Of a stretch of 64,000 nt of DNA, positions 5,205 to 27,130 are shown piece after piece (the stretch's first letter is position 1; each line of letters starts with the position of its first letter). Origin of the DNA: Bacteroidales bacterium (lineage in GTDB: Bacteria > Bacteroidota > Bacteroidia > Bacteroidales > UBA7960); NCBI GenBank assembly GCA_035477775.1, contig DATIKH010000133.1, positions 49,673 through 113,672 of the forward strand. The letters run 5' to 3'. A model generated the notes under the pieces. The model had not been told where the DNA came from and made no database searches. It saw only the letters and a list, made by a program, of their open reading frames with translations. The translations under genes were made by a program, and so were the position numbers.

Positions 5205-5237
5205 AAAAAAAAGGTGAGAGATGTCGAATCTCCCACC
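5205..5237 (-). terminator. Rho-independent terminator downstream of the amidase gene
   Basis: The minus-strand RNA reads GGUGGGAGAU-UCGAC-AUCUCUCACC followed by U8 (plus-strand A8 at 5205..5212). The stem is 10 bp; the single plus-strand mismatch becomes a G-U pair on the transcribed strand. It starts 12 nt after the TAA at 5250..5252. Confidence 0.75.
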
Positions 5238-5249
5238 TCCCTTTGAGAA

Positions 5250-8664: not shown

Positions 8665-9624
8665 CTATTGGATGTTAATTACATAAATACTTCCGGATTT
8701 ATGATTTTCAAAAGCAATTTTTTTTCCGTCGGGCGAAACCGATGGGCTCATTGCAATTATATCGGTATTTGCAGTAAGCAGGAATTCCTGGCCTGTTTGA
8801 GGGTCAACGGCAAAAAGATCGCTTTGGGTAATCTGATAACCATCGTCCTTAGTAATCATTACAATAAGGTATTTACCATCGGGGGTCCATCGTGGGCGCT
8901 CTCCCCTACCAATTTGTTTCAACCCGGTGCCATCGGTGTTCATAACAAAAAGGCCCTGAGCAGACACCTGAAAGGCCAGCCTGCTGCCATCAGGCGATTT
9001 TACAACATTAAAAATGGCATTGTCTCCGAAATCGGCCATAACCCGGATATCAATATTGTCGGTGCTGCCTTCGAGAACCTTCCCTTCGATCGAAAAAGCA
9101 ACCGGAGTTTCGGGCCTTTCGATAGGAACAGCCAGAGGTGCCTTGCCACTTTCTATCCATTGAATTCGCCCATCAATTACTACCCCCAGATGCAGGTCTT
9201 GATGCGTCCAGAGGGGAAGACCTTGAATGCCCCGCTGGGGTTTCGTCATGGCGTGGCTTTCGCCGGTTTCGGCATGTATTATTTCAATCCATTGATGACG
9301 CAGGTCATTAATATAGCCGGAGGCGCGTGCAAGCAGGGTTTTGCCATCTGACGACCAGGAGAAACCAAAGCCCACCCCATCGCGATCAGAAATCTGCCTT
9401 AAACCACTACCATCGGCCATTGCCACCCACAAGCCCTTGTGTTTTTCGGAAGAAAAGGCAATGTACTTCCCATCGGGCGACCATACGGGATGGAGCCAAA
9501 TCCTTTCACTTGCAGGAATCAACTCCCAAGGTTCACCAACAACAACCGGCTGAGCTCTGGAAATCGAACTCAAAACCAAAATAAGCATGGCTGCCGGCAA
9601 AATTATCAAAACACTTTTTCTCAT
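8665..9624 (-). CDS. Exported TolB-like beta-propeller protein (PD40/WD40-like repeats)
   Basis: Signal peptide MRKSVLIILPAAMLILVLSSISRAQP. The PD40 signature recurs: WSPDGKYIAFSS, WSSDGKTLLARA, SPDGSRLAFQV, WTPDGKYLIVM, VSPDGKKIAFEN. Its stop is 13 nt from the amidase start. Confidence 0.7.
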   Translation of the reverse strand: MRKSVLIILPAAMLILVLSSISRAQPVVVGEPWELIPASERIWLHPVWSPDGKYIAFSSEKHKGLWVAMADGSGLRQISDRDGVGFGFSWSSDGKTLLARASGYINDLRHQWIEIIHAETGESHAMTKPQRGIQGLPLWTHQDLHLGVVIDGRIQWIESGKAPLAVPIERPETPVAFSIEGKVLEGSTDNIDIRVMADFGDNAIFNVVKSPDGSRLAFQVSAQGLFVMNTDGTGLKQIGRGERPRWTPDGKYLIVMITKDDGYQITQSDLFAVDPQTGQEFLLTANTDIIAMSPSVSPDGKKIAFENHKSGSIYVINIQ

Positions 9625-9662: not shown

Positions 9663-12038
9663 TTAGTTCACTTTCATGACTTTAAAAGTCATCACCTTTC
9701 CACTTTGGGTAATTACGGTTCCGATGTAGAACCCTACCGGCAAACCTTCAAGCGACAATTCATCCAGTCGGGTATCCTCACCGCGTTCAACCTGCCACAT
9801 TTTTTGTCCGGAAGTATTAAACAGCGAAATTGTACGTCTGCCTAAATTTTGGGGGTAAGTCAGGAAAAACCTGGTGGTTGCCGGATTTGGATAGACTCTC
9901 AATGAAATGGGGTCAATATCCTCAACCGATAATGCCGCAGTAGTGGTAAACTGCACAACCGGCGACCATTGCCCCCGGCCGCAGGCATTGATGCCAGCCA
10001 CCCTGAGATAATGCGTGGTGTTGGGTGCCTGCAGGGTAATATTAGACATATTTTGGGTAAGATTCGGGCGGTCAATAATCAGTGAACCTTGACCAAATAA
10101 GGGATCTTGCGAAACCTGCAGATGGAAATTGGTGGCTTCGGGTAAATGCTGCCATTGAGCCACCGATGTAAAGTTTACGTTTTGCTGGCCGCTTAAAGGG
10201 TTATTAATAGCCGGGGTTGAAGGAAAACCGGTATTAAAGCGATCGATCAATGAATAGGAAACGGTCCTGTTATTGATGGCTTTTACCCGGTAAAAATACG
10301 TTTTCTGACCCTCAAACCATTGGCTGTTGATGTTAAAAAAGCGCTGGTCGATTGTGTCTGTCTCAAACTTAAGCAACGATGATGCACTCGGGCCATCAAA
10401 TACCATTAAACTATATCGACTGATTCCGGGTATTTCGTTCCAGATAATTTGATTGCCTTCGCACAAGGTTGCTCCGTTGTGTAGTGAAAACGTCGGTGGG
10501 TTTATATGAATAAATTCAATAAAACCTGAATTTTCGCCAATGGTCTTGTTTCGAGCATATTCGGCTACTGCCAGATATCGGAAATTACGTTGCATATTCA
10601 GGCTGAATCTATTGCCAAAAGCCACCTGCAAGAATTGAGGATTTACCAAGTTATTCATTGCATCCGGAGGCTCATTGGATCCGAACAAAAGAAAGCGATC
10701 GGCATTTGAATCCATATTAAGTACGACCAACTCGTTGTCGTCGGCTATTGAACCAACATCAATGATTCTGGGCTTCCTGAGAGTCGGAGCTGGCAACCAA
10801 CTGGCGACCGGTAAAATAGTCTTTTGGGAAAATAAATCACTCCTAAGATGGCCAGCTAAATTCTTGCTGAGGTTTAGCAAGCCGCTGGTATGAAAAAAAA
10901 TATAACCGGGAGCATTATTGGCAGGGTTATTCCTGTGGGCAATAATTTGGTTTCCGATTTCAGTTACAGGCCAGTTTAACGCGTCATAAAGGCGATACGA
11001 TCCAAGACTTGGATAATGGTGGCGTCCGAAGCGACGAGCCTGCTCGCCCCACCATGCATCAAGTGCGATGAAGTCCTGCCCGCCCCCAATAGGCCAATAC
11101 AGTTGCGGAGAGAGATAATCAATATAGCCATGCTTTAACCATGCCAGAGGGTCGGCGTTAATGGTTGACCAATTGTTCGCGCCGGTTATTCCCGGAGGCA
11201 GGGTGGTGCCATAAAACTGAGCTACCAAATGGTTGGTAGTGTAGATGCCTGCCGGACTAACTCCAAACAACAGCGAAGGGTTGATAGATTTTATAGTGTC
11301 ATTGACTTCCCTGATCATATTGTTTACCGAGGCCCTGCGGAAATCGCCGCGCGTAAGGGTTGTAAACAATGGTCCATGATAATAACGCCTTATAAAAGCT
11401 TCGTTGCCAAAAGCATCGAAGGTATGTTGGTCGAGGTTTAATGGCATGTTGACGGGATAAAAATAATCATCGAAAATTATTCCATCAACGTCGTAATTAT
11501 GCACAATATCGGCAACAATGTTTTTAATTATTTGGGTTGTTTCAGGATGGCCGGGGTCGAGAATGGTACTGTTGTTGAAGTTGATAACCAGGTGTGGGTG
11601 GGTCCGGGCATAATCGCCGGGGAGGCCTGCGAAACTTCCGGTAACACTTTCGAACCTGTATGGGTTGAGCCATGCATGAAGCTCCATTCCTCTTTGGTGT
11701 GCCTGTTCAATGGCAAATTGCAAAGGGTCATACCCTGGATACTGCCCCCTTGAGGCAGACGAAGTACCCAGAAGATGTGACCACGGCTCGTGGGCCGAAT
11801 GGTAAAAAGCATCGGCAAAGGGCCTTACCTGAAAAAACACCACATTGACATTGGCGGCCTCCAACCTGTCGAACATTTGTATAAGGCTGTTCTTTTGGGT
11901 CTGGACCGACCCTACAGGAGGCCAGTCAATGCGCCATGCCGTTGTAAACCAAGTTCCACGTAATTCACGCGCCGGTTGGGTGGCAATGGAAAAAAAGGAA
12001 AAAGGAAAAAGGAAAACAAACAGTAAGAAAATTTTCAT
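9663..12038 (-). CDS. T9SS-sorted glycoside hydrolase-like family 10 (GHL10 / DUF187, YngK-like) protein
   Basis: Signal peptide, then ELRGTWFTTAWRIDWPP ... NVNVVFFQVRPFADAFYHSAHEPWSHLLG ... GYDPLQFAIEQAHQRGMELHAWLNPYRF. These match the GHL10 family motifs as I remember them. Fn3/Ig-like region follows, then a T9SS CTD. Confidence 0.8.
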   Translation of the reverse strand: MKIFLLFVFLFPFSFFSIATQPARELRGTWFTTAWRIDWPPVGSVQTQKNSLIQMFDRLEAANVNVVFFQVRPFADAFYHSAHEPWSHLLGTSSASRGQYPGYDPLQFAIEQAHQRGMELHAWLNPYRFESVTGSFAGLPGDYARTHPHLVINFNNSTILDPGHPETTQIIKNIVADIVHNYDVDGIIFDDYFYPVNMPLNLDQHTFDAFGNEAFIRRYYHGPLFTTLTRGDFRRASVNNMIREVNDTIKSINPSLLFGVSPAGIYTTNHLVAQFYGTTLPPGITGANNWSTINADPLAWLKHGYIDYLSPQLYWPIGGGQDFIALDAWWGEQARRFGRHHYPSLGSYRLYDALNWPVTEIGNQIIAHRNNPANNAPGYIFFHTSGLLNLSKNLAGHLRSDLFSQKTILPVASWLPAPTLRKPRIIDVGSIADDNELVVLNMDSNADRFLLFGSNEPPDAMNNLVNPQFLQVAFGNRFSLNMQRNFRYLAVAEYARNKTIGENSGFIEFIHINPPTFSLHNGATLCEGNQIIWNEIPGISRYSLMVFDGPSASSLLKFETDTIDQRFFNINSQWFEGQKTYFYRVKAINNRTVSYSLIDRFNTGFPSTPAINNPLSGQQNVNFTSVAQWQHLPEATNFHLQVSQDPLFGQGSLIIDRPNLTQNMSNITLQAPNTTHYLRVAGINACGRGQWSPVVQFTTTAALSVEDIDPISLRVYPNPATTRFFLTYPQNLGRRTISLFNTSGQKMWQVERGEDTRLDELSLEGLPVGFYIGTVITQSGKVMTFKVMKVN
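9666..9905 (-). other. Type-A T9SS C-terminal sorting domain
   Basis: SLRVYPNPATTRFFLTYPQNLGRRTISLFNTSGQKMWQVERGEDTRLDELSLEGLPVGFYIGTVITQSGKVMTFKVMKVN. Confidence 0.85.
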
Positions 12039-12106: not shown

Positions 12107-13705
12107 TTATCTTTTAACATGGTCAATTCCAATACCAAAAGGTATTACGCCAGTAACAAAAAACTCAGGTGGGGCCGAACCATCTATTCTGAAACGTTTC
12201 ACCCCAGATCTGGAGCCGTCACCAACAATCTCCCCAAGCAGGTTGATGTCGTCCTGATGCCTGAATGGATAGTAAATATAGCCGCCCTCTGCATCTACCA
12301 CTATGGATGTAATAAAAGTGCGCTCGGCCTCGCCGCCTTGAAGCGAAAATCCTTCTAGGGCATCAATGAGCTGAATGTTCGACCCATCGAGATTGCTTAC
12401 ATATAGTCCAGGATTCAGACCACCGCTGGCATTGTTTATGGCAAAGAAAATTTTCCCGTTTTGGGTATCCACTTCAAAAGTTCTGATTTTGAATGGGAAA
12501 AGGTTGTCGATCCGGGCAATAAACGCCCCTGCCATGGTAAATCTAAATAGACCTTGCCCGGTGCCATGCTTACTGTACCATATTTCGTTATTTACTATCC
12601 TGACGGTTCCATCAGTCCACCCAAATGTACTTGACACATTCAGATTTGCGGCCATTTCTGCAGGTACGTTCCAAACGAATGGGCGGGGATATTCGGCCAA
12701 AACTTCGGAATGATGAATACGGCGTACGCCCTGGAATCGGTCAAGCCAGTAAACAAATCCGTTCTGATCGACAGTCGATACAAACGGATCGTCAATATAA
12801 GTGTGTTCAAGCAGGCTGGGAGCGGTAATTGTATAGCGGTTTGTCCCGGTCAGGGTAGTGGTGAAAATTGAGCCATCGGGTGGCGTTCCGGCTGGAGCAA
12901 ACCTGATGTGATTGCCTGCATCCGAAATAATTAGTCTTTCTCCAAAAACACTAACCGACAGCGGATGCATGCCTACCGAAATTGGCAAGGGTACCAATGG
13001 CGCTACGGCTCCGGTGTAAAGCATTTTTTTGTAAAGGCGCTGAGTTATTGCGTTTGTAATGTAAAGTGTTTTGGCAATTTCGGCTTTTACAGTGACTTGA
13101 ATACTCGTAGAAAGGGTTTCAAGCCCATCGAAAATTGTAACAGTAACCGTGTAAACCCCAGGAAGATTGAACCTGGTTGTGGGCCTGGGTTCGGTCGAAG
13201 TACGGCCGTTACCAAAATCCCACCGAAACGTTACCTGATCGGCTAAATCCGGGTATTGAAAAAACTCCGCCCAAAAAGTTACCTCATCGTTAAACACGAT
13301 TCCTTCAGGATAGAACCTAATTACCGGTTGAGGTTTTATAACCCTAAACTCCCTGGTATGTACAGTTTCTTTTCCTCCGGCAGTAATGGTAAGCGTTGCG
13401 GTATATATTCCCGGCCACGGGTAATACACGCCCTCCGGTTGAATTGCGGTAGTGGTGGAGTCACTTGTTGCCACTCCATTCACAATAATTTGCCCACCTG
13501 GGAAACTCCAATGGTAGGATTCGGCATTCTTGGTCCGGTTAATAAACCTGACTGTTGAAGGAGCGAACAAACGGTCGACATTTTCGATTGTAAAACTGGT
13601 GATCACCTCGCCCCACATCCGTTCATCTTCCTTTTCGCAGCTTATCAAAAGCGCAGCCAACAACAAATATACAGGCCAGATTTTTATGATTTGCTTAGGG
13701 TTCAT
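12107..13705 (-). CDS. Lipoprotein with PKD-like domains and a C-terminal beta-propeller-like region (SusE/F-position candidate surface glycan-binding protein)
   Basis: Lipobox LLAALLISC. PKD-type segments: FAPSTVRFINRTKNAESYHWSFPGG, and VTFRWDFGNGRTSTEPRPTTRFNLPGVYTVTVTIFDG. It sits two genes downstream of susD. Confidence 0.6.
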   Translation of the reverse strand: MNPKQIIKIWPVYLLLAALLISCEKEDERMWGEVITSFTIENVDRLFAPSTVRFINRTKNAESYHWSFPGGQIIVNGVATSDSTTTAIQPEGVYYPWPGIYTATLTITAGGKETVHTREFRVIKPQPVIRFYPEGIVFNDEVTFWAEFFQYPDLADQVTFRWDFGNGRTSTEPRPTTRFNLPGVYTVTVTIFDGLETLSTSIQVTVKAEIAKTLYITNAITQRLYKKMLYTGAVAPLVPLPISVGMHPLSVSVFGERLIISDAGNHIRFAPAGTPPDGSIFTTTLTGTNRYTITAPSLLEHTYIDDPFVSTVDQNGFVYWLDRFQGVRRIHHSEVLAEYPRPFVWNVPAEMAANLNVSSTFGWTDGTVRIVNNEIWYSKHGTGQGLFRFTMAGAFIARIDNLFPFKIRTFEVDTQNGKIFFAINNASGGLNPGLYVSNLDGSNIQLIDALEGFSLQGGEAERTFITSIVVDAEGGYIYYPFRHQDDINLLGEIVGDGSRSGVKRFRIDGSAPPEFFVTGVIPFGIGIDHVKR

Positions 13706-13718
13706 GGCTTATAGTTAT

Positions 13719-14513
13719 TTACTTTATGATTCTGAAATTTCGCGAAGAAGTGGTGCTGGCATTGGTTTTACCGATTACAGCAACTGATTCAATGGTTCCG
13801 CGTGAGTTGTCCTCTACAGTGGCTTCATCTATATGCTGGGCCAACCTTGCTCGGGTAAGGTTGGTGCGTACAAATTCAAACCCGAAAGGTGTGAGGTTTC
13901 CAGTAAATGCGCCTGTTTGTGGATTAAACTCAAAGCATAGAACAGGTGCACCAGGAAACAAGCTTAACACATGGGCCCTGTTCATTTGCAGGCTGAGTTT
14001 TTGTACAATGGCATTAAAAGCTGGGTTGCTCATTTGTTCGATAAGCAACGCACCTGTTGAGGTCAGCATTCCGAATCCACTACCGACGTAGAAAGGGCAA
14101 ATGATCACATATGCGTTTTCAATTGTTTGGTAAAAATCGTTGAGCGATTCACCTGCTCTCGGAAAGGATTCGATCAGGGTTCGCTCAATAAATATTGTAT
14201 CGGTCAGGTGATTAGCCGATAGCCTGACGGTTTGTCCGCTCACGGTAAATGCCATCCTTACCGAAAAATTCTGAATCCTGAATCCCTCGTAAAAGAACGA
14301 AATGGTGCTTATATCGTCGTGCTCCGACCAGCTTACGGTGCGAAGCATAAGGGTGTCGGTTACTTTTGCATCTTGCATTTGGGCAAGCAGGTTAAAAGGC
14401 TTTATTAAGCCTGTGGGGGTGCCCAATTCGGCCAGGTTGTCGTTCTTATCGCAGGAAGCAAAAAAAACACCAATAGCCGCTAATAAAAGAAAAGATTTGA
14501 ATAACATCTTCAT
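13719..14513 (-). CDS. Hypothetical lipoprotein (SusE/F position)
   Basis: The track ORF 13719..14666 overlaps the susD 3' end. An internal ATG at 14513 gives MKMLFKSFLLLAAIGVFFASCDKNDN (lipoprotein signal) and lies 14 nt downstream of the susD stop. I recognise no family motif. Confidence 0.6.
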   Translation of the reverse strand: MKMLFKSFLLLAAIGVFFASCDKNDNLAELGTPTGLIKPFNLLAQMQDAKVTDTLMLRTVSWSEHDDISTISFFYEGFRIQNFSVRMAFTVSGQTVRLSANHLTDTIFIERTLIESFPRAGESLNDFYQTIENAYVIICPFYVGSGFGMLTSTGALLIEQMSNPAFNAIVQKLSLQMNRAHVLSLFPGAPVLCFEFNPQTGAFTGNLTPFGFEFVRTNLTRARLAQHIDEATVEDNSRGTIESVAVIGKTNASTTSSRNFRIIK

Positions 14514-14527
14514 CTTAAAAGGTTTTT

Positions 14528-16009
14528 TTAATTCGACAATGTTGAATTGGCCGACCACCAGAACGGGGTTACAATCCATCTTACATCTCTGGCGCCAAGT
14601 CGGGCAATTTCTCTTGGGTTGAAAATGTATTCTGTTTGAGGGTCGTAGGGCAGACGTTGAATCCATTGCCCGTTGTATTCAGGCAGAGCCCTTTCGGGGT
14701 ATTGAAGACCCGGAAAAACTGAAGGAGAAAACCCGTGACGTCGCATATCCGACCATACCTCTGGTTGCAGATAAAGTGCAATGTATTTTTGCATCATAAT
14801 ATCAGATATTCTCAGTGCTTGGGCACTCTGAGCTACGGCGGGAGAGTTTTTGTATGCCTCAAAATATTGCCCCACACCGAGTCGGTTAAAGTTTCGCCGA
14901 ATTCCGTTCAGGTAAGCCTGAAATGCCCTTTCTCTATTGGGCAAATAAAAAGCTGCCTCAGCCTCTATGAAATACAACTCTTCGTCAGTAATAAAAATAA
15001 TTGGAGAATTGTCACTTGTCCAGTATCCATTATAAAGTATGGCAAAGTCGTCAATACTTAAAGCCCCTATGCCGGTACTTGCCGGAACAGAAGCATAATT
15101 TCCGTTTCGGCCAGGGGTTGTGAGCCTATACAGCCTCGGGTCGCGTTGTCCCGAGAGGTTCATCGCATTCATAAAAAAGGTTGTATGAACTGAGTTGTTA
15201 AGCATATTGCGGATATCGGCAAAGTCCCATTGCGGGCTTGTCCTTGAAGGTCCCCAGGGGTTGATTTCCCATGCATTTGCCGGGTTGTCAGGAAAAGCAT
15301 AAAGAGGTTCTGCCCAATTTGGTCTGGCCAAATCAACCGCATCAAGCACGGCCTGATAGCCCGTTTTAAAATTGGCAGTTCTTAGCAACATTCGGGCACG
15401 TATGGCATGTGCAAAAGCTTTCCATCTGTTTATATTGCCGGCAAAAATATGGTCTTCGGCCTGCGTCATGGCCCTGTCGGTAGGCCTTGACATTTCAAGG
15501 GCCTGAATGCCCTCAAGGAGTAATCTGTCCACTTCGGCATAAACCACATCCTGAGGATCGTAAGTTGGGTTGTGAATGCCTGTAAAGGCCTGAAGAACCG
15601 GCATGTCGCCGAAAAGGTCGGTTGCTGTCAGTGTTGAAAAAGCAAGGATAATTTTGCCCACTCCAATATAATTTTGAGAGCCTTCACTTTCAGCAAAAGA
15701 AATCATTCTGTGCGCGTTTCCGCCAGTATCAAAATAATGGCGCCTCCAAGGGTTAACCCTTAACACCCCGCGGTAATCCCAACGGTCCTTTACTGCATTG
15801 GTACCAAATGTGGTTGTAACAAATTGGGTAATATAGGCAGTGGTTTCTCCGTGGGAATAAAGTGAATAAGCCATATTGCCCAGAACGGCCGGCAGCATAA
15901 AGTTTGGGGTAGTTCTTTCGTCGTTGTCAAGGGAGGTGTTTACATCCAGAAAATCATCACAGCCCCAAAAGAAGATGACAGTTATTATAATAAAAAAGTA
16001 TCTCTTCAT
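14528..16009 (-). CDS. susD: SusD/RagB-family nutrient-binding outer-membrane lipoprotein
   Basis: Lipoprotein signal MKRYFFIIITVIFFWGC. The size (493 aa) and TPR-like helical sequence fit the family. It lies 5 nt downstream of the SusC-like gene, the canonical susC-susD pairing. Confidence 0.85.
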   Translation of the reverse strand: MKRYFFIIITVIFFWGCDDFLDVNTSLDNDERTTPNFMLPAVLGNMAYSLYSHGETTAYITQFVTTTFGTNAVKDRWDYRGVLRVNPWRRHYFDTGGNAHRMISFAESEGSQNYIGVGKIILAFSTLTATDLFGDMPVLQAFTGIHNPTYDPQDVVYAEVDRLLLEGIQALEMSRPTDRAMTQAEDHIFAGNINRWKAFAHAIRARMLLRTANFKTGYQAVLDAVDLARPNWAEPLYAFPDNPANAWEINPWGPSRTSPQWDFADIRNMLNNSVHTTFFMNAMNLSGQRDPRLYRLTTPGRNGNYASVPASTGIGALSIDDFAILYNGYWTSDNSPIIFITDEELYFIEAEAAFYLPNRERAFQAYLNGIRRNFNRLGVGQYFEAYKNSPAVAQSAQALRISDIMMQKYIALYLQPEVWSDMRRHGFSPSVFPGLQYPERALPEYNGQWIQRLPYDPQTEYIFNPREIARLGARDVRWIVTPFWWSANSTLSN

Positions 16010-16014
16010 GGTAT

Positions 16015-19000
16015 TTAAAATTTAAGATTTAAACCAAATGTTATAGATCTGCCGTGGGGTACCTGAAAAAAATCTACACCCATAGTGCCTGCTCCACTAC
16101 CACCTCCGGCATCCGGTCCGGCATTATTTACCTCGGGATCTCCCCCTGAATAATTGGTTAGAAGCAAAGCGTTTTGCAGCGATATGTTTATGCTGGCCTC
16201 TTTTAAGCCTAACCTAGCAATTAAGGAATTTGGAAGAAAATAATTCAGGCCCACATTACGCAAGCGTACCCAGAAAACTTCTTCAACGAAATTGGTTCCT
16301 GCAAGAATGTAATTATTAATGAAAAAGTTTTGATCCAGGGTGACAGGTGTAGTGTTCGGGGCAAAAGTACCATCCGGAAGCTCTACTACTCCATCAAAAA
16401 TAAACTCCTGGTTTCGGTATTTTCCTACCATATTGTGTTGGCCTGTTGAAACAAGAAACTGTCTGGTGGCATTAAGCAGTTGAGCACCATAAGTTCCATC
16501 AACCAAAAATGAAAATTCCAGGTTTCTGAATCTAAAATTATTGTTCAGCCCAAAATAAAACCTTGGTTCGCGGTTTCCTATAAATCTTTTCTGATTGTCA
16601 ATTCTTGGGAAACCATTATTGTCAACGATTACTTTACCTTCGCTGTTTCGCAGGTAATCGGTACCTACAATTCCAAACAGGGGTTTACCAATCCATGAGC
16701 TGGCAATTGCTTGGGTAGAGACTTGGCCGAAGGTTACAGGAAACTCAACCAGGTCGCCAAAAAGTTCGGTCAACCGGGAGCGGTTTCCAAACCCATTGAG
16801 GGTTACCTCCCAATTAAGATCCTCCCTCCTTATTATCCTGCTGCTGATAAGAAGTTCAATACCCCTGTTTTCTACCGAGCCTGAGTTTACTGCCTGCAAT
16901 ATAGCGCCGGTAACCGGTGTCACCCTTGGCTGAATTATTTGGTCGCTCGACACTCTGTTGTAATAGGTCATGTCTATGGTAAAGAGACCGTCCCAAAGCC
17001 TTAAGTCGGCACCGATTTCAAATTCTCTGGTAATTTCTGGTTTTAGGAGCGGGTTTCCAGCAAAGGCTCCATTTCTCCATCCGCCTCCGATACCAAAAAA
17101 CTGCTCTAGGGTTTGTGTTAGGCGATGTGGAGGGGCGTCCTTACCAACACTGGCAACACTTGCCCTTATTTTTCCAAAAGAAAAAATGCGGGCGGCCCTT
17201 CCATCGAGCAACTCACTAAAGATAAATGCTGTACTGATTGAGGGATAAAAGAATGAGCGGTTTTGCAAGGGAAGGGTCGAAGACCAGTCATTGCGTCCAG
17301 TAAAATTCAGAACTAAAAATCGGTCGTAATCAATGGTTAGGTTACCAAATACACCTATAATTCTCCTATTGGATGTTGCCTGATTATTTCGCACCACGCG
17401 CAGGTTGTTTATGGAGTGCAGGGCAGGGTTGCGGAAGCGCTCACCCTCAACGCTGGTATTGCGTGCAAAATTAGACTGAATGTTTTTCCCTACCATGGTA
17501 GTAACTCGCAGTCTATCTGTGAATTCATTATCGGCAACTGCCAGTAATGTAGATGTTATTTTCTCGCTTTCGCGATTAAGCTCACTTATGGATCCCTCAA
17601 AGTCAGTTCCTTCCGATCCGGGCTCCTGAACAGATTTTAGGTGCTGCTGAAAATAGTCGCGCCCGGCAGTATAATTAAAAGATAGCCAATCTAAAGCCTG
17701 GAAAGTAAGATTAATGGTGTTGATATTGCGGCTTACGTTATCGGTTCTAACCTGATGAAAAGCGCTCCACATGGGATTATCGGGGACTTCGGCAAGATTG
17801 CCGCTTACGGGTATCCAAACATTCCGTTCTGAGCCATCGGGGTTACGGTAATCGATCATATTATCCCAAACCGGCCAGCGGTAAAGATCTCTTAGCCAAC
17901 CACCGCTTGAACTGAATATACCAAGCCGGTTATTAGTCCTGACTATGTTAGAGGTAGTGGTGACCGAAATGCGGTCACTGATGTTTACTGTTCCTGATAG
18001 GAAAGCTGAGTTTCGTCCAAAGAAAGTATTGGGTACTATGCCTCTATCCCCCAAACTCGACAGCGATAAAAAATAGGTGAGTTTTGAGGTACCTCCGCTT
18101 ACATTAGCGTCAATCTTATTAGCCATTCCGGTTTGGAAATAGTTATTTAGGTTGTCATGTACCTGATCGCTTCGCCTTAATGGGGGTCCCCAATGCGAGA
18201 ACGTTCTTGGGTGGAAAATTCCTGCCCCTCCTGTTGTATAAAACTGTTGTGTGTCGTGCAACCAACCCACCTGCGAAATGGTGGAAGAAGTTGATAGGCC
18301 AACAGAAACGACACCCTCTTGTCCGCGTCTGGTAGTAATGATTATTGCACCATTGGCAGCATCGATGCCGTAAAGCGCAGCCGCCGCAGCCCCTTTCAAT
18401 ACCGTAACCGATTCAATGTCGTTTGGGTTAAGGTCGGCAATCCGGTTGGTGGTTCCCCTTATGGAGGCATTTGAAACAGGAACTCCATCGATTACAAACA
18501 ATGGCTGATTGTCTCCATCAACAGAGGTTGCCCCGCGCAAAATAATTTCTGAAGAAGACCCGGGTGCTCCTCCTGTAGAGCTAATCTGTACCCCCGAAAC
18601 CCTTCCTTGAAGCGCATTCACAACATTTTCCTGACGTGAAGCTCTAATAGCATCAGAATCAACGCTCTGAACATTGTAGGTAAGAGTCCGCTCCTCACGT
18701 GCTATACCCAGAGCGGTAACCACTACTTCTTGCAGTGCAGCTGCTTCGGGTTGGAGTACCACATTAATGATGGTTCGATCCCCTACAATGGTTTCATAGG
18801 TCTCCATACCAACAAAACGAAACACCAGCACATCGCCCGACGAAGCATTGATCCGGAATTGTCCCTCCAGATCGGTGGTTGTGCCAATGGTCGTTCCTTT
18901 AATTAAAACGGTAACCCCGATAAGTTGAGTGCCATCCAAGGCATCAGTTACCGTTCCGGTAATCTGCCTGGCCTGTCCGTGCAACCCAAGCGTCGTGAAG

Positions 19001-19035
19001 ATCAAAAGACCTAAAAAAACAAAGATCTTCTTCAT
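16015..19035 (-). CDS. susC: SusC/RagA-family TonB-dependent outer-membrane transporter
   Basis: 1006 aa. N-terminal carboxypeptidase-regulatory-like domain ITGTVTDALDGTQLIGVTVLIKGTTIGTTTDLEGQFRI. Plug region (VVVTALGIAREERTLTY, IESVTVLKGAAAAALYG). C-terminal beta-barrel ending ...ITFGLNLKF. No N-terminal STN/anti-sigma signalling extension is visible. Confidence 0.9.
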   Translation of the reverse strand: MKKIFVFLGLLIFTTLGLHGQARQITGTVTDALDGTQLIGVTVLIKGTTIGTTTDLEGQFRINASSGDVLVFRFVGMETYETIVGDRTIINVVLQPEAAALQEVVVTALGIAREERTLTYNVQSVDSDAIRASRQENVVNALQGRVSGVQISSTGGAPGSSSEIILRGATSVDGDNQPLFVIDGVPVSNASIRGTTNRIADLNPNDIESVTVLKGAAAAALYGIDAANGAIIITTRRGQEGVVSVGLSTSSTISQVGWLHDTQQFYTTGGAGIFHPRTFSHWGPPLRRSDQVHDNLNNYFQTGMANKIDANVSGGTSKLTYFLSLSSLGDRGIVPNTFFGRNSAFLSGTVNISDRISVTTTSNIVRTNNRLGIFSSSGGWLRDLYRWPVWDNMIDYRNPDGSERNVWIPVSGNLAEVPDNPMWSAFHQVRTDNVSRNINTINLTFQALDWLSFNYTAGRDYFQQHLKSVQEPGSEGTDFEGSISELNRESEKITSTLLAVADNEFTDRLRVTTMVGKNIQSNFARNTSVEGERFRNPALHSINNLRVVRNNQATSNRRIIGVFGNLTIDYDRFLVLNFTGRNDWSSTLPLQNRSFFYPSISTAFIFSELLDGRAARIFSFGKIRASVASVGKDAPPHRLTQTLEQFFGIGGGWRNGAFAGNPLLKPEITREFEIGADLRLWDGLFTIDMTYYNRVSSDQIIQPRVTPVTGAILQAVNSGSVENRGIELLISSRIIRREDLNWEVTLNGFGNRSRLTELFGDLVEFPVTFGQVSTQAIASSWIGKPLFGIVGTDYLRNSEGKVIVDNNGFPRIDNQKRFIGNREPRFYFGLNNNFRFRNLEFSFLVDGTYGAQLLNATRQFLVSTGQHNMVGKYRNQEFIFDGVVELPDGTFAPNTTPVTLDQNFFINNYILAGTNFVEEVFWVRLRNVGLNYFLPNSLIARLGLKEASINISLQNALLLTNYSGGDPEVNNAGPDAGGGSGAGTMGVDFFQVPHGRSITFGLNLKF

Positions 19036-19084: not shown

Positions 19085-19930
19085 TTATTCACCAAGCCTC
19101 TCGTAAGCTTCCAATGCATTTTTTACTGATCCGTACTTTAGCAGCAAATCCCTTGCTTTTACCGAATCAAGGCTAAGTTCTTCCATAAGCATGCGGGTAC
19201 CGCGTAGCACCAACTTTTGGTTTGTAAGCTGCATATTTACCATTTTATTCCCTTTTACCCGCCCCAACTTAATCATTATTGTTGTGGTAATCATGTTCAG
19301 AATCATCTTTTGGGCGGTTCCTGCCTTGAGCCTTGTGCTTCCGGTAACAATCTCGGGGCCTACAATGGCTTCAATAGGGTATTCGGCTTCGCGCGAAACG
19401 AGTGAATTGGGATTGCAGGTAATACATCCGGTAAGAATTCCGTTTTCGCGTGCCTTTCTCAGGCCTCCAACCACATAAGGCGTTGAGCCTGATGCTGCAA
19501 TTCCAATAACTGTGTCGAGCGTATTTATGTTGCGCTCTTTCAGCTCTTCCCAAGCTTTATCCTGGTCATCTTCGGCAGCCTCAACCGGATTTCGCAATGC
19601 CCTGTCGCCTCCGGCAATCAACCCTATAACCAGACCCTGGGGTGCACCAAAAGTGGGCGGAAGCTCCGAGGCATCCAATACACCCAAACGACCACTTGTA
19701 CCTGCACCCAAATAAAAAAGGCGGCCCCCGTTGCGCATTCGCTCAATAATCTGACAAATCAAAGCCTCAATTTGGGGCAAGGCCTTACGCACCGCTATAT
19801 GAACCTTGGCATCTTCGCTGTTGATAGAATCAATTAGCTTCTTCACAGTCATCTTCTCAAGGTTTTCAAATTGCGAAGGCGACTCGGTTATGCTAAGTTC
19901 AAATTTTATTTTTTTATCCCTGCCCGACAT
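19085..19930 (-). CDS. murQ: N-acetylmuramic acid 6-phosphate etherase
   Basis: GGRLFYLGAGTSGRLGVLDASELPPTFG, IGLIAGGDRALRNPVEAAEDD, IGIAASGSTPYV and VTGSTRLKAGTAQKMILNMITT align block for block with E. coli MurQ as I remember it. Confidence 0.93.
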   Translation of the reverse strand: MSGRDKKIKFELSITESPSQFENLEKMTVKKLIDSINSEDAKVHIAVRKALPQIEALICQIIERMRNGGRLFYLGAGTSGRLGVLDASELPPTFGAPQGLVIGLIAGGDRALRNPVEAAEDDQDKAWEELKERNINTLDTVIGIAASGSTPYVVGGLRKARENGILTGCITCNPNSLVSREAEYPIEAIVGPEIVTGSTRLKAGTAQKMILNMITTTIMIKLGRVKGNKMVNMQLTNQKLVLRGTRMLMEELSLDSVKARDLLLKYGSVKNALEAYERLGE

Positions 19931-19947: not shown

Positions 19948-20790
19948 TTAATTATAAAATTTGTGAAACTCAATAAGGCCCAACATCGGATCCTTAATAA
20001 TTTTCCCAATGGTAAATCCACAATCGTGCGCCGCTTCTTTGAGTACTCCTTCAAAATGCCAGGCTATGCTTCCGGTAAAATGCACCGGGAGGCTTTGTGC
20101 CCGAGGGTATTGGGCTATGTTGCGGTTAAAAAACTCTTTGAATGAGCTTTTTACCAGTTGGTAAACAAACCCGTCGCTAATATGCTTTGAAAGAAACGGA
20201 GTAAAGGAAGCCAGATAACGATTAGGAAATGGCTTTCGGTAAACGCTTTCAAGAATCTCGGCCGTAGTTTGGCCAAATGTTTTCTCAAAACTTACCTGAA
20301 GATGCTCCGGAGCCTGATTTTTGAGAAAATCGGCTACCAGTTTACGGCCAAGAACTGCTCCGCTACCTTCGTCGCCTAAAATAAATCCTAGTGGCGAAAC
20401 ATGTTGTTTAATATTGACTCCATCGTAATAACATGAGTTGGAGCCGGTGCCTAATATTGCGGCAATCCCTTCGCTATGCCCGCATAAAGACCGGGCTGCT
20501 GCAAGCAGATCGCTTTCTACTTCAACCGAGGATACTTCAAAAAAGTTTTTAAGGACTGACGACAGCAGAGCCTTTTTCTCTGGATTGGCACAACCTGCTC
20601 CGTAAAAAAATATCTTCCGTATACCCTCACGCCCAAGTGTAAATTCCCCAGAGAGGGTAGAATAAATATCGTCGGCCGATTGGAAAAAAGGGTTTATGCC
20701 TGCAGTCTGACAGTTCATTTCAGGGATTTTTTCATCGGCAAGCAAAAACCAATTTGTCTTTGTCGATCCACTGTCAGCAATTAGCACCAT
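19948..20790 (-). CDS. BadF/BadG/BcrA/BcrD-type sugar kinase (GlcNAc/MurNAc kinase-like; same family as Tannerella MurK)
   Basis: N-terminus MVLIADSGSTKTNWFLL, then GAGC ... ILGTGSNSCYYDG ... ILGDEGSG, the ASKHA-fold phosphate and adenosine motifs. 280 aa. Its stop is 17 nt upstream of the murQ start. Substrate specificity cannot be read from the sequence. Confidence 0.75.
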   Translation of the reverse strand: MVLIADSGSTKTNWFLLADEKIPEMNCQTAGINPFFQSADDIYSTLSGEFTLGREGIRKIFFYGAGCANPEKKALLSSVLKNFFEVSSVEVESDLLAAARSLCGHSEGIAAILGTGSNSCYYDGVNIKQHVSPLGFILGDEGSGAVLGRKLVADFLKNQAPEHLQVSFEKTFGQTTAEILESVYRKPFPNRYLASFTPFLSKHISDGFVYQLVKSSFKEFFNRNIAQYPRAQSLPVHFTGSIAWHFEGVLKEAAHDCGFTIGKIIKDPMLGLIEFHKFYN

Positions 20791-21442: not shown

Positions 21443-22672
21443 CTAATAAAGAAAATATTTTTCCGCTCTTTTGATAAAGGCCGGTATCTCCTTTGTCCAG
21501 AGGGGCAGAATATCTTCTACCAGAAAACGTCTTCCGAATGCTTTGCGAACTTGGTCGGTGCCGCAAACTTTATCGAACATATCGAGACGGCTTTGGTGGG
21601 CTAATTCAAAAACGTTTTTCTCAGGGTGCAATTTTTTAAGCTCCTGCAAAAAATAAAATTGTAAAAGCGAAAGCGGGGCTTTTTGTGCATCGATTATGTG
21701 TACCTGCACTCCGTGTAACATTTTATTTTTCATATCGGTGTAGAAGGCGCGATAGTGAATGGGCCTGAAAATTACTCCTGGTATTTCCAGATTGTTTAAA
21801 CGATTGGACAACTCTGAAGCATTTCTGATCCAATCAATTGCAAAAGTCTGAAAAGGAAGTGTGTATCCAACACCAATATTTATTACATGCAACTCGCCCA
21901 GGATTCCAGAAGCCGGATAATAATAAGACGTGATGGCATGCGGTATATGAGGCGATGCAAGCACCCAATGCAGACCGGTCTCCTCGAAAGTCATGTTCCG
22001 CTCCCACCCCTGCATCTCAATTACAGTAAGCTTTGCCTGGATTCCATTAGCCAGCAGACGTTCGCCATTCAGAAACTTTGCAAGTTCTCCCACGGTAAAT
22101 CCATGCACATAAGGAATTGGAAATTGGCTAACAAAAGAGATGAAACCTTCCTTTACAAGAGGGCCTTCAAACTTGTTGCCTCCCAGCGGGTTGGGGCGAT
22201 CTAACACCATAAATTCAATTCCTTGCTCTGCTGCAGCCTCCATAGCCAAGCCTAAAGTGCTGATATAGGTATAGGAGCGTGAGCCTATGTCCTGTATGTC
22301 GTAAACCAGTATATCAATACCTTTTAGCATTTCTCGTGTCGGTTTACGAGTGCGGCCATAAAGGCTGTACATGGTTATGCCGGTAATAGGGTCTTTTTTA
22401 TCGTCAATTAACTCCCCTGCGGGGAACTCGCCACGCACTCCGTGTTCAGGGCCGAAAAGGGCTACAAGTTGTACCCCGGGAGCTTCATGCAAAATGTCGA
22501 TTGTTGATCGTAACTGGCTGTCAACACCGGTTGGATTGGTTATCAGCCCAACGCGTTTCCCCAGCAATGGTGCAAACCCTTTTTCGCGCAAAACATCAAT
22601 GCCTGGTTTTACCTGGCTAAAAACTAACATACTGTTAAAAATCAAAACTAATAAAACAACAGTTTTTTTCAT
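21443..22672 (-). CDS. namZ: DUF1343-family protein, NamZ-type exo-beta-N-acetylmuramidase homologue (periplasmic)
   Basis: Signal peptide MKKTVVLLVLIFNSMLVFSQ. Then GIDVL ... GKRVGLITNPTGV ... LFGPEHGVRG ... YSLYGRTRKPTREML ... ILVYDIQDIGSRSYTYISTL ... VLDRPNPLGG ... IPYVHGFTVGELA, the conserved blocks of DUF1343. The enzymatic call is by family membership only. Confidence 0.8.
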   Translation of the reverse strand: MKKTVVLLVLIFNSMLVFSQVKPGIDVLREKGFAPLLGKRVGLITNPTGVDSQLRSTIDILHEAPGVQLVALFGPEHGVRGEFPAGELIDDKKDPITGITMYSLYGRTRKPTREMLKGIDILVYDIQDIGSRSYTYISTLGLAMEAAAEQGIEFMVLDRPNPLGGNKFEGPLVKEGFISFVSQFPIPYVHGFTVGELAKFLNGERLLANGIQAKLTVIEMQGWERNMTFEETGLHWVLASPHIPHAITSYYYPASGILGELHVINIGVGYTLPFQTFAIDWIRNASELSNRLNNLEIPGVIFRPIHYRAFYTDMKNKMLHGVQVHIIDAQKAPLSLLQFYFLQELKKLHPEKNVFELAHQSRLDMFDKVCGTDQVRKAFGRRFLVEDILPLWTKEIPAFIKRAEKYFLY

Positions 22673-23825: not shown

Positions 23826-23997
23826 AACTTAAGTGCTTTAAATTGATATTGAATTAATTATTACGTTGTTGGGAAAAACTAAATGTCGATTCTTTGGAAT
23901 AATTAAATTTGACACCGAAAATTAAATGGCGCAGCAATTATTAAAGGCGTAAAATTACTTCTTTCGAAAAGAAGGAGTGCTGAATACAACGATAAAA

Positions 23998-24954
23998 ATG
24001 CATTGTATGGAACCTAAAGTAAACAATGAGCAAGTTTTCAATCTAAAAAACAGTTTTAATGAAAGGTTTTTTGTAAGAAGTTACCTGCCCGAATCAGAGA
24101 AACCCATGGGCATTGTACAGGTAATTCATGGCATGGCCGAGCACGGGGGTCGGTATTCAGAGTTTGGTAACTATCTGACCAAACTTGGGTTTGGTTTGTA
24201 TGTTGCAGATCTTCCCGGTCATGGCCAAACGGCCGAAAACTCCATGCAGTTAGGACATATTTCGCCCAATGACGGTTGGGAGAAAATGCTTGATAATACA
24301 CGAACCCTATATACTCATATCCGGACCAGCCACTCGGAAGTGCCGGTTTTTATGCTGGGTCATAGCCTGGGTTCAATTCTTGCCAAGCATATCACAGCTC
24401 TTTACCCGCTATATGTGCAGGGTTTGATATTATCAGGCACTTTCGATGTACCCGAAAGCAAAATGCGTCTCATAAATATTTTTCTGCAATTCCAGTCCTT
24501 TTTCCTAAGCTCTGAAACCAAAAGCAAATGGTTTAACCGGTTGTTTTTTGGAGGTTTCAACATGCATTTCAACCCGAGGCCCACACCTTACGAATGGATT
24601 TCTTCTGTTCGCGAAGAGGTTGACCAGTATGCCAATGACCCATATTGCGGATTCGAATGCAGTGTAGGTTTTTTTAAAAGTTTCGGAAGGGGTTACTTAG
24701 CCATGAAAAAAGTAAGCCAAAACCTTACGTATCGAAAGACATTACCAGTGCTGATTTTTTGCGGACAGGATGACCCCGTGGGTAATTTTGGGAAAGATGC
24801 TATTAAAATACACAGTGATTTTTACAAGCAACGGTTTCAGAATCTAACCATTAAGGTCTTTAATGGTCGACACGAATTGTTTCACGAAAAAGACAAGGAA
24901 AAAGTGTTCGAATATCTTCTTAACTGGATGCTCGAATACCTCCATACCCGATAA
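23998..24954 (+). CDS. Alpha/beta hydrolase (lysophospholipase / monoacylglycerol lipase-like)
   Basis: VIHGMAEHGGRYSEF ... ADLPGHGQT ... nucleophile elbow MLGHSLGS. The track start at 23977 is a GTG. I prefer ATG 23998 (MHCMEPK); ATG 24007 is also possible. Confidence 0.8.
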   Translation: MHCMEPKVNNEQVFNLKNSFNERFFVRSYLPESEKPMGIVQVIHGMAEHGGRYSEFGNYLTKLGFGLYVADLPGHGQTAENSMQLGHISPNDGWEKMLDNTRTLYTHIRTSHSEVPVFMLGHSLGSILAKHITALYPLYVQGLILSGTFDVPESKMRLINIFLQFQSFFLSSETKSKWFNRLFFGGFNMHFNPRPTPYEWISSVREEVDQYANDPYCGFECSVGFFKSFGRGYLAMKKVSQNLTYRKTLPVLIFCGQDDPVGNFGKDAIKIHSDFYKQRFQNLTIKVFNGRHELFHEKDKEKVFEYLLNWMLEYLHTR

Positions 24955-25084
24955 AATTAAGTTTAATAAACCCTTTTACCGTTTTTGCCTGCATTGAACT
25001 TCAAAATTTTACCAATGCAAATTCGAGCGGTAATATTCACCAACTAGAACAGTAGAATTTTTAAACCTCACTAATTACATAATT

Positions 25085-27130
25085 ATGAAACAGTTCATCC
25101 GATTCAAATCGGCTTTTTTCATTTTGACGGTATTCTTGCTGGCAACCGCCTGCAAACCGCGCGACAATAATGCCGTGATTCCTATCGATAGGGCCAATAT
25201 GGACTTTACGATAAATCCAGGTGATGATTTTTTCAGATTTGCTAACGGAGGATGGTTGGTGGCCAACCCCATTCCCGACGAATACAGTAGGTACGGTGCG
25301 TTCGAACAGCTGCGCAAGGCCAATGACCAACAACTTCAAGCTTTGATCTCACAGATCAGCAGCGACCTGCAGGCACAACACGGAAGCAACCGTCAGCGGA
25401 TCCGCGATTTTTTCAACACAGCCCTCGACACCGTGGCAATCGAAGAAAACGGGATTACCCCATTGCTCCCAATGATGCAAGAAATTGGCAACATGGCCAC
25501 CCGCGACGATCTGGCAAAGAAAATGGCTGATCTGCACCTTCAGGGAATCAGGCCATTGTTTTCGATCTTCGCCTCTCAGGACCGGAAAAATGCCGAGATG
25601 AACATTGCAAACATAGCACAAGGCGGCCTCGGCATGACCGACCGCGATTATTATTTTCTGAACGACCCCAGGAGCCTCGAAATTCGTGCCGCCTACGAAG
25701 CCATGATTGAAACCATGTTCGGTTTGGCAGGCTACGATGAAAATCAAAGAGTGGAAGCTCGCAAAACCATAATGGCAATTGAAACCCGGCTTGCCAGGGC
25801 CTCCATGGACAGGGTAACCCGCCGCGACCCACGTGCCACCTACAACAAAAAATCCGTCGAGCAATTACGCCGTATTTCCCCAACATTCAATTGGCAGTTG
25901 TATTTCAGTGAACTTGGAATTGCCATCGAGGACCTTAATGTATCCCAACCGGCTTTTTTCGCCGAAATGGAAAAGCTTCTGCGAGAGCATCCCCTTGAGG
26001 CTTGGAGAACTTATCTTACATGGAACCTGCTGCGCAGCTCTGCCCCTTTCCTCTCTTCTGCCTTCGAAAATGCCTCTTTCGAATTTTATGGAAGGGTTAT
26101 GACGGGAAGTCTTGCCATGCAGGAGCGCTGGCGCCGGGCATTATCATGGCTCAATAGCGCTATGGGAGAGGCTGTAGGACAGGAGTATGTAGCCATACAT
26201 TTCCCTCCGGAAGCTAAAGAGCGCATGCTCGACCTGGTGGAACATTTGCGTAAAGGTTTCTCGAAACAGATAGACCAGCTCACCTGGATGAGCGACGATA
26301 CAAAGGTACAGGCACAGAAGAAACTTGCCTCCATGAACGTGAAGATCGGGTACCCCGACAGATGGATTGATTATTCGGCAATGAATATTTCGGTACAGCC
26401 GTTTGTACTTAATGTGCTGGAGGGCAATAGGTTCAACACACGTCGCAATCTCGACCGGATTGGACAACCTGTTGACCGCGATGAATGGTTTATGAGTCCA
26501 CAAACGGTAAATGCATATTACAGCGCTTCGCTCAACGAGATTGTTTTTCCGGCAGGTATTCTGCAACCACCTTTCTTCTATCTCGAAGGCGACGATGCGG
26601 TAAATTTCGGAGCCATCGGCATGGTTATTGGCCACGAGATTATTCATGGATTCGACGATCAGGGAAGAAAATTTGACGCTGCAGGAAATCTCCGCGACTG
26701 GTGGACACCCGAAGATTCTCAAAAATTTACAACCCTTACCCAGGTGTTGGTTGACCAATTCAATAATTACGTAATGCTCGACACCCTCACGATTAATGGT
26801 CGCCTGAGCCTTGGTGAAAATATTGCCGACCTGGGTGGGCTTACCATCGCTTTCAACGGACTTCAGAGCAAATTGGCCGAAACAGGCCGTCCCGACCTTA
26901 TCGACGGGTTCACCCCCGAACAACGTTTCTTTATCTCTTATGCACAAATTTGGCGAAACAATGTCCGCCCGCAAGAGCTAAGACGACAGATAAACGAAGG
27001 GCCACACTCACCCGGCGAAGCCAGGGTAAATGGACCTGTTTACAATATGGATGTTTTTTACGAAGCATTCGATATTCAACCAGGCCAAGCCCGATTTATT
27101 GCGCCAGAAAACCGGGCAAGGATTTGGTAA
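25085..27130 (+). CDS. M13-family zinc metallopeptidase (PepO / endothelin-converting-enzyme-like), lipoprotein
   Basis: Lipobox LLATAC. NAYY motif (VNAYYSAS). Zinc site VIGHEIIHGFD. Downstream GENIADLGG. C-terminal ...ARFIAPENRARIW. Confidence 0.9.
   Translation: MKQFIRFKSAFFILTVFLLATACKPRDNNAVIPIDRANMDFTINPGDDFFRFANGGWLVANPIPDEYSRYGAFEQLRKANDQQLQALISQISSDLQAQHGSNRQRIRDFFNTALDTVAIEENGITPLLPMMQEIGNMATRDDLAKKMADLHLQGIRPLFSIFASQDRKNAEMNIANIAQGGLGMTDRDYYFLNDPRSLEIRAAYEAMIETMFGLAGYDENQRVEARKTIMAIETRLARASMDRVTRRDPRATYNKKSVEQLRRISPTFNWQLYFSELGIAIEDLNVSQPAFFAEMEKLLREHPLEAWRTYLTWNLLRSSAPFLSSAFENASFEFYGRVMTGSLAMQERWRRALSWLNSAMGEAVGQEYVAIHFPPEAKERMLDLVEHLRKGFSKQIDQLTWMSDDTKVQAQKKLASMNVKIGYPDRWIDYSAMNISVQPFVLNVLEGNRFNTRRNLDRIGQPVDRDEWFMSPQTVNAYYSASLNEIVFPAGILQPPFFYLEGDDAVNFGAIGMVIGHEIIHGFDDQGRKFDAAGNLRDWWTPEDSQKFTTLTQVLVDQFNNYVMLDTLTINGRLSLGENIADLGGLTIAFNGLQSKLAETGRPDLIDGFTPEQRFFISYAQIWRNNVRPQELRRQINEGPHSPGEARVNGPVYNMDVFYEAFDIQPGQARFIAPENRARIW

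Follow-up and report, generated by a model that had tools for sequence, protein, structure and literature searches.

Positions 9663-12038 on the minus strand of the analysed DNA, a stretch of 64,000 nucleotides from a Bacteroidales genome (referred to here as the window), carry an open reading frame (ORF) of 791 codons without interruption. We conclude that this gene probably encodes a secreted, endo-acting enzyme of the GHL10 family, the family of DigH and Cwp19, which cuts the glycan strands of peptidoglycan and is employed as the polymer cutter of a SusC/SusD locus foraging on foreign cell walls. It is the deployment of the enzyme that is new, the substrate class of the family being already known. 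The characterised GHL10 enzymes target the wall of their own producer, DigH in division and Cwp19 in autolysis; here the module is wired to SusC/SusD and to the catabolism of N-acetylmuramic acid (MurNAc). No description of a GHL10 foraging enzyme secreted by the T9SS (type IX secretion system) and encoded in a SusC/SusD locus together with a secreted amidase was found in the searchable literature.

An earlier note on this DNA, made from the sequence, had taken GHL10 as a family without a firmly established substrate and had offered the locus as a handle on that substrate. The former view is outdated and the latter does not hold, the substrate class being known from Cwp19 and DigH. The GHL10 domain of Cwp19 degrades peptidoglycan to 1,6-anhydro-muropeptides, the products of a lytic transglycosylase, together with some reducing-end products, and Cwp19 is able to drive cell lysis (PMC6016235). 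DigH degrades denuded (peptide-free) glycan strands both in a purified system and in vivo, and is critical for cell separation once such strands accumulate, as described in PMC12288456, which cites Yakhnina and Bernhardt (2020). The question of the family substrate was thus largely answered between 2018 and 2020, and it is not one that the window locus opens.

Membership of the 791-residue protein in this family was evident from profile, alignment and predicted structure. The Pfam profile PF02638 (GHL10) matched residues 25-333 along positions 1-282 of its 311 (E 3.7e-53), with 181.1 bits against a gathering cut-off of 27.9. The sole sequence match in the Protein Data Bank (PDB) was C. difficile Cwp19 (5OQ2, E 1.9e-66), and DigH of E. 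coli (YddW, b1491; 'divisome localized glycosyl hydrolase' in RefSeq) was 33% identical across 350 residues, corresponding to the whole barrel (E 1e-61). Among metagenomic sequences the nearest homologues (P0002-P0018) showed 51-68% identity. An AlphaFold2 model, built from an alignment of 54 homologues, reached a mean predicted local distance difference test (pLDDT) value of 90.4 and a predicted template-modelling (pTM) score of 0.79, and consists of a TIM barrel, three all-beta modules and the beta-sandwich of a C-terminal sorting domain (CTD), with the boundaries given in Table 1. In a Foldseek search the modelled barrel superposed on the crystal structure of Cwp19 (5OQ2_B) with a template-modelling (TM) score of 0.92 relative to the target, a root-mean-square deviation of 2.5 Å, an E-value of 3.4e-33 and 35% identity, while the middle region retrieved tandem Fn3 arrays. 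Over residues 390-715 Pfam gave no confident family, fn3 remaining sub-threshold (E 0.08), and the assignment of the middle modules as Fn3-like is therefore based on the model and on the homologues, many of which carry PF00041 (fn3). The architecture read in the earlier note, a GHL10 barrel followed by Ig/Fn3-like spacers and a T9SS CTD, is thus borne out by Pfam, NCBIfam, AlphaFold2 and Foldseek; that note had left the strand, which is minus, unstated.

The active site was compared by mapping residues by position from the alignments with Cwp19 and DigH. For Cwp19 a set of 13 residues was proposed from the solved structure (PDB 5OQ2/5OQ3), namely, W36, Q77, W127, R132, D195, D196, Y197, S250, Q295, Y297, G328, F367 and S368 (PMC5765458). 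Eleven of the 13 are identical in the window protein, W30, Q70, W123, R128, D190, D191, Y192, S261, Q312, Y314 and F382, and DigH carries all of these eleven. Among the 54 homologues ten of the eleven shared residues were invariant, W30 nearly so, and F382 was mostly replaced by Tyr; the invariant residues of the barrel include Q70, W123-x-N-P-Y-R128, D190-D191-Y192, S261, Q312 and Y314. Judged by these residues the catalytic module looks intact. With an invariant Asp-Asp-Tyr located where strand 4 ends and a non-acidic residue at the 'nucleophile' position of strand 7, the site suggests a substrate-assisted chemistry via the 2-acetamido group. An Asp-Asp pair after strand 4 without a strand-7 carboxylate is expected for substrate-assisted cleavage beside a 2-acetamido sugar. 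The structure prediction and the search for catalytic residues that the earlier note had called for thus yielded both a barrel matching that of Cwp19 and an invariant acidic pair, D190-D191. Its proposal of an endo-acting enzyme on denuded peptidoglycan strands is favoured by sequence, fold and context, but this functional guess is what homology already predicts because of the match to Cwp19 and DigH and the 11 of 13 site residues.

The N-terminal sequence, MKIFLLFVFLFPFSFFSIA/TQ, looks like a Sec signal peptide that lacks a lipobox cysteine. At the C-terminus the T9SS sorting domain was detected at residues ~715-789 by PF18962 (Por_Secre_tail; 29 bits, cut-off 27) and also by TIGR04183 (E 2.3e-9; 37.1 bits against a cut-off of 23), the latter indicating a type-A sorting domain. 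The machinery for this route is encoded in the host, a presumably uncultured bacterium whose assembly comprises 2.63 Mb in 151 contigs and belongs to an order very rich in families. The translocon protein SprA was found on contig C105 (2588 bits), PorV at window positions 59106-60347 on the minus strand (NF033710, E 6e-146) and the sortase PorU at 60589-63858 on the same strand (NF033707, 1220 bits), an ORF that may run past the window end. A protein with a signal peptide and a type-A CTD is thus encoded in a host with both translocon and sortase. The porV and porU genes lie adjacent to each other, and approximately 47 kb separate them from the genes of the locus that encode T9SS cargo.

The export signal bears on whether the protein could be a housekeeping enzyme for remodelling of its own septal wall, as is DigH. 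The homology to DigH speaks for such a role, but a T9SS sorting domain directs its cargo out of the periplasm and the gene is located inside a SusC/SusD locus. In addition, a second GHL10 gene of the host (contig C41:8252-8965; L001:1330-2220, plus strand), which scores 208 bits with PF02638, is 40% identical to the window protein (P0001) and is cut by the contig end, could fill that role and might be a housekeeping DigH-like copy. A housekeeping function of the window gene is, we consider, very improbable. Both proteins belong to the same Pfam family, and at the window locus too an amidase is placed to make the denuded substrate. In contrast, DigH is a lipoprotein of 439 residues in the outer membrane and works from the periplasm on the septal wall of its own cell, whereas the window protein has 791 residues with three Fn3-like modules and a T9SS CTD, is predicted to be exported, and is encoded in an uptake locus of the SusCD type.

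The features of the gene and of its locus, all genes of which from namZ to the amidase gene lie on the minus strand, are listed in Table 1. The neighbours named in the earlier note (SusCD, MurQ, NamZ, the TolB-like propeller and the exported amidase) were all found. The adjacent SusC and SusD genes are co-oriented with the glycan-degrading enzymes, with short gaps and conserved synteny, as in a polysaccharide utilisation locus (PUL). A gap of 652 bp separates namZ from the sugar kinase gene. The PKD-domain protein is a probable surface glycan-binding protein, and no Pfam or NCBIfam match was obtained for the small lipoprotein encoded next to it. The earlier note had also placed the GHL10 gene in one apparent transcription unit with the propeller and the amidase. 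This is plausible, because the gaps are 38 bp (GHL10-PD40) and 13 bp (PD40-amidase) and the sole strong terminator-like hairpin that was found, at 5244-5206, follows the amidase gene. Just upstream of namZ but on the opposite strand, window positions 23977-27130 encode two further enzymes, an alpha/beta hydrolase of the S33 type (PF12146) and a metallopeptidase of the M13 type; both might act on stem peptides once these are released, though there is nothing that ties them to the locus.

Table 1. Features of the GHL10 gene and of the surrounding locus. Positions are those of the window; residue numbers refer to the 791-residue protein.
Feature	Position	Strand	Evidence
T9SS-exported GHL10 enzyme, whole gene, 791 aa (P0001)	9663..12038	-	ORF, translation, Pfam and NCBIfam domains
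Signal peptide, residues 1 to ~20, lipobox cysteine absent	11979..12038	-	translation; helix 2-14 of low pLDDT in the model
GHL10 (beta/alpha)8 catalytic barrel, residues ~22-410	10809..11975	-	PF02638, Cwp19 and DigH alignments, Foldseek, invariant columns
Beta-sandwich module 1, residues ~420-505	10524..10781	-	AlphaFold2 model, pLDDT mostly >90
Fn3-like module 2, residues ~525-603	10230..10466	-	AlphaFold2 model; Foldseek Fn3 arrays
Fn3-like module 3, residues ~610-700	9939..10211	-	AlphaFold2 model; weak Pfam fn3; homologues with PF00041
Type-A T9SS C-terminal sorting domain, residues ~712-791	9666..9905	-	PF18962 and TIGR04183, both above cut-offs
NamZ exo-beta-N-acetylmuramidase (GH171)	21443..22672	-	PF07075 E 7e-84; PF20732 E 2.7e-33
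BadF/BcrAD-type sugar kinase, MurK/NagK-like	19948..20790	-	PF01869 below cut-off, 26.3 vs 31.5 bits
MurQ etherase	19085..19930	-	NF003915 E 1.3e-109
SusC, outer-membrane import pair	16015..19035	-	TIGR04056 E 2e-182
SusD, outer-membrane import pair	14528..16009	-	SusD-like_2 E 3e-40
Small lipoprotein, SusE/F position	~13719..14513	-	62% identical in sister species (G032)
PKD-domain protein, 532 aa, SusE/F position	12107..13705	-	Pfam; kept with SusCD and GHL10 elsewhere
PD40 (TolB-like) beta-propeller, 38 bp downstream of GHL10	8665..9624	-	PF07676 E 1.8e-24; synteny
Amidase_3 (MurNAc-L-Ala amidase) with Big_5 and T9SS CTD, 1133 aa	5250..8651	-	domain scan; conserved partner
Terminator-like hairpin, 17-bp stem and T run, after amidase stop	5206..5244	-	hairpin scan

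Based on these genes, we can also propose a pathway. Family membership, fold, an intact site, the export signal with its machinery and conserved synteny were observed directly; what we infer is which substrate is used and that it is denuded, cleavage in the endo mode, the extracellular location and the order of events. The protein would cross the inner membrane by the Sec route and would then be exported by the T9SS via its CTD, to be displayed on the cell surface or released, a step proposed because of the sorting domains and the presence of SprA, PorV and PorU. The Amidase_3 enzyme, presumably co-transcribed and co-secreted, would rid exogenous peptidoglycan of its stem peptides. The GHL10 barrel would cleave the resulting bare strands to oligosaccharides, as expected from its homology to DigH, the substrate of which is denuded glycan, and to Cwp19; the Fn3-like modules may provide a spacer arm or take part in binding. 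The intermediate of cleavage would be resolved either by water, as in a hydrolase, or by the C6 hydroxyl of MurNAc, as in a lytic transglycosylase. The oligosaccharides would be captured by the PKD lipoprotein and SusD, imported by SusC and trimmed in the periplasm by NamZ, after which an inner-membrane transporter encoded outside the locus would take up the products, and the kinase and the etherase MurQ would turn MurNAc into N-acetylglucosamine-6-phosphate. The glycans on which NamZ enzymes act are free of peptides (bioRxiv 10.1101/2021.12.02.470905), which fits an amidase-first order. Peptide-free strands are proposed as the working intermediate since the secreted amidase, the specificity of DigH and the specificity of NamZ all converge on them.

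The two modes of cleavage lead to one alternative, that the enzyme, although acting on peptidoglycan, resembles Cwp19 in being a lytic transglycosylase and gives 1,6-anhydro-MurNAc rather than reducing MurNAc ends. This alternative is possible, if somewhat doubtful. The anhydro-muropeptides formed by Cwp19, the closest solved relative (PMC6016235), are in agreement with it, and an Asp-Asp site with a single acid and no strand-7 nucleophile is compatible with it (PMC5765458). The host also encodes the anhydro-MurNAc kinase AnmK on the same contig (C133:118543-119637), approximately 5 kb past the window end and ~57 kb away, and AnmK would gain relevance should the GHL10 enzyme prove to be a lytic transglycosylase. 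However, the MurK/NagK-type kinase and MurQ of the locus use non-anhydro MurNAc, AnmK being encoded outside it, reducing-end products were released by Cwp19 as well (PMC6016235), and DigH is described as a hydrolase (PMC12288456).

With both the GHL10 enzyme and the amidase secreted by the T9SS, and with the lysis of cells that can be driven by Cwp19 (PMC6016235), the pair might be an antibacterial or predatory weapon that lyses neighbours, nutrient uptake being secondary. A weapon of this kind appears quite improbable: an enzyme that prefers denuded strands would not by itself lyse intact cells, the tight linkage to SusCD and to the catabolic kinase-MurQ module indicates uptake, and no immunity gene was evident at the locus. 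The roles of weapon and of feeding are, however, compatible with each other and not mutually exclusive. As a rationale for the locus, a MurNAc auxotrophy of the Tannerella forsythia type was also considered and was rejected, MurA being encoded in the host genome; nutrition or salvage therefore appears to be the purpose of the locus, and not the rescue of an auxotroph.

The proposal of a foraging locus gains from its conservation. In a sister species (G032) the order kinase-MurQ-SusC-SusD-small protein-PKD-GHL10-PD40-amidase-adhesin-like cargo is identical, with identities of 40-81%, and in two other families of the order (G029 and G135) the block SusC-SusD-PKD-GHL10 is kept, together with PD40-amidase in G029. 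The block or parts of it were also detected in loci of Mariniphaga, Carboxylicivirga, Paludibacter and Rubricoccaceae. Other Bacteroidia share the core of the locus, and some of its parts occur in Rhodothermota-type genomes. The amidase is a conserved partner (L011, L012, L049, L081 and G032), and in relatives the PD40 propeller gene accompanies the amidase gene.

A more distant set was then formed by 80 loci of homologues with 29-45% identity in species-representative genomes, for which neighbours within 10 kb were collected. SusC was present at 12 of the 80 loci, PD40, a T9SS-type amidase and the kinase at 10 each, and NamZ at 8, as compared with a rough chance expectation of about 1 of 80 for a gene of one to three copies; four of the 10 amidases align over ~750 residues with 39-47% identity. 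Clustering of the neighbouring ORFs without preselection gave three recurrent contexts, a Bacteroidia-type with SusCD, PKD, PD40 and amidase, a Balneolales-type with GH3 NagZ, NamZ, BadF kinase and an HGSNAT-like membrane protein, and an Ignavibacteria-type with a TonB-dependent receptor, a TIG protein, a PorV/FadL-like porin, a 695-residue protein and a histidine kinase. Peptidoglycan or MurNAc is indicated by two of these contexts. The third is an uptake locus, seemingly one without SusD, and its partners are uninformative. The conserved 695-residue protein of the Ignavibacteria-type loci (for instance L016:16238-18325) gave no Pfam match.

The earlier note had further suggested a survey of the co-occurrence of GHL10 with MurNAc genes. 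At the level of whole genomes this was rejected as uninformative, NamZ being present in 146 of the 151 genomes sampled from the order; because NamZ is near-universal in this sample, only co-location is informative. What is conserved for the clade is co-location with SusCD, PKD, PD40 and amidase, while co-location with NamZ or MurQ is a minority pattern.

Several observations weigh against a peptidoglycan-foraging enzyme. Within the order sample NamZ lay within ~12 kb of GHL10 in only 3 genomes, and at about 26 of the 80 distant loci, mostly of the Ignavibacteria-type (within L004-L056), a full-length T9SS GHL10 was accompanied by no recognised peptidoglycan gene. At the window locus itself, no regulator of the kind associated with a PUL (hybrid two-component system, SusR or a pair of extracytoplasmic-function sigma factor and anti-sigma factor) was found among the ORFs scanned from 3 to 23800, and an inner-membrane transporter and NagZ are absent from the locus, GH3 genes being located elsewhere in the host genome. 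Two site residues of Cwp19 are changed, Gly328 to Ser344, at the position where enzymes of clan GH-A have the nucleophile, and Ser368 to His383; the former is still non-acidic, and the latter position is unconserved in DigH also. Glycan-backbone cleavage has been demonstrated for Cwp19 and DigH, neither of which is of the T9SS type, and the preference for denuded strands is known only for DigH (PMC12288456), the assay of Cwp19 having used whole peptidoglycan (PMC6016235).

The cultured Pedobacter glucosidilyticus DSM 23534 provides a further exception. Its locus (L064, 9995-23433) encodes a GHL10-CTD protein of 597 residues, a CTD cargo protein of 536 residues, SusC, SusD, a 254-residue protein, a PKD protein, a GH18 enzyme and a second GHL10 protein of 502 residues, and no amidase was present within the 23 kb examined. 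Because the Pedobacter version has GH18 and a second GHL10 instead of the amidase, the wider SusCD-GHL10 module could target a broader class of amino-sugar glycans. The enzyme of the window might accordingly be directed at another amino-sugar polymer, such as chitin or chitosan, poly-N-acetylglucosamine (PNAG), a polysaccharide of the capsular or secondary cell-wall type, or a glycan from fungal walls. The Ignavibacteria-type loci without recognised peptidoglycan genes agree with this, as does the nearest structural neighbour of Cwp19 outside the family, the C-terminal domain of the PNAG-processing protein PgaB (PMC5765458). At the window locus, however, the gene is flanked by a MurNAc-L-Ala amidase, with MurQ and NamZ upstream, all three being MurNAc-specific, and peptidoglycan is the substrate of both well-characterised family members. 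Given amidase, MurQ and NamZ, we regard such a polymer as unlikely here.

A starch-degrading activity reported for a distant GHL10 protein also weighs against a peptidoglycan-cleaving enzyme: the Deinococcus protein DogH, annotated as GHL10, was reported to release maltose from starch (PMC9967864). That the window gene encodes an alpha-glucan hydrolase is nevertheless barely credible, since DogH is only ~21% similar to Cwp19 (PMC9967864), Cwp19 itself was inactive on starch, pullulan and maltose (PMC5765458), and the window locus contains no alpha-glucan gene.

With peptidoglycan as the favoured substrate, the locus can be compared with other known systems. Cwp19, the only solved relative, is like the window protein displayed beyond the cytoplasmic membrane and carries a non-catalytic C-terminal extension. 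In Cwp19, however, this extension consists of CWB2 repeats that anchor the protein to the Gram-positive wall of its own cell, where it functions in autolysis, whereas in the window protein it consists of the Fn3-like modules and the T9SS CTD, and the target is presumably a foreign wall. The MurNAc salvage clusters of T. forsythia and Bacillus subtilis (NamZ, MurK, MurQ, AmiE and NagZ) have NamZ, a BadF-type kinase and MurQ in common with the window locus, and there too peptide removal precedes the exo-muramidase; as described, these clusters contain no SusC/SusD pair, GHL10 or T9SS-exported endo-glycanase, and in T. forsythia a putative lytic transglycosylase, LytB, takes the place of GHL10 (bioRxiv 10.1101/2021.12.02.470905).

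The chitin utilisation locus of Flavobacterium johnsoniae (ChiA) offers a parallel in design, combining as the window locus does a T9SS-secreted polymer cutter, import by SusC/SusD and periplasmic exo-enzymes. It differs in using GH18 and GH20 on chitin, as against GHL10, Amidase_3 and GH171 on peptidoglycan.

Peptidoglycan is a large and nitrogen-rich share of dead bacterial biomass, and its recycling matters for the turnover of carbon and nitrogen in gut, soil and aquatic systems. We lean slightly toward a more general proposition, namely, that Bacteroidota possess a dedicated peptidoglycan PUL, with T9SS-secreted amidase and GHL10 that break down foreign walls to peptide-free oligosaccharides outside the cell and with import by SusCD and PKD, and that GHL10 is the general 'missing' endo-glycanase of foraging on bacterial necromass across several phyla. 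If this is true, the PUL paradigm would be extended to bacterial cell walls, and a substrate would be provided for many 'orphan' SusCD loci whose only enzyme is named 'family 10 glycosylhydrolase' or 'YddW'; the standard annotation of PULs, based on carbohydrate-active enzymes, would miss a GHL10 endo-glycanase.

Two further arrangements were observed near GHL10 genes of the distant set. At L063:14510-15670 (minus strand) and its relatives, 12 Balneolales-type loci in all, an HGSNAT_cat/DUF1624-type membrane protein is encoded beside a BadF-type kinase, NamZ and GH3, the GHL10 genes nearby being of the short form; this membrane protein might supply the inner-membrane step that the window locus lacks. 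In a metagenome-assembled genome of Blastocatellia (L078:11398-13875, plus strand) a GHL10 gene is adjoined by a gene for an 825-residue protein that joins a beta-lactamase-family domain (PF00144, E 5e-74) to NamZ_N and NamZ_C and may be a combined peptide- and glycan-processing enzyme.

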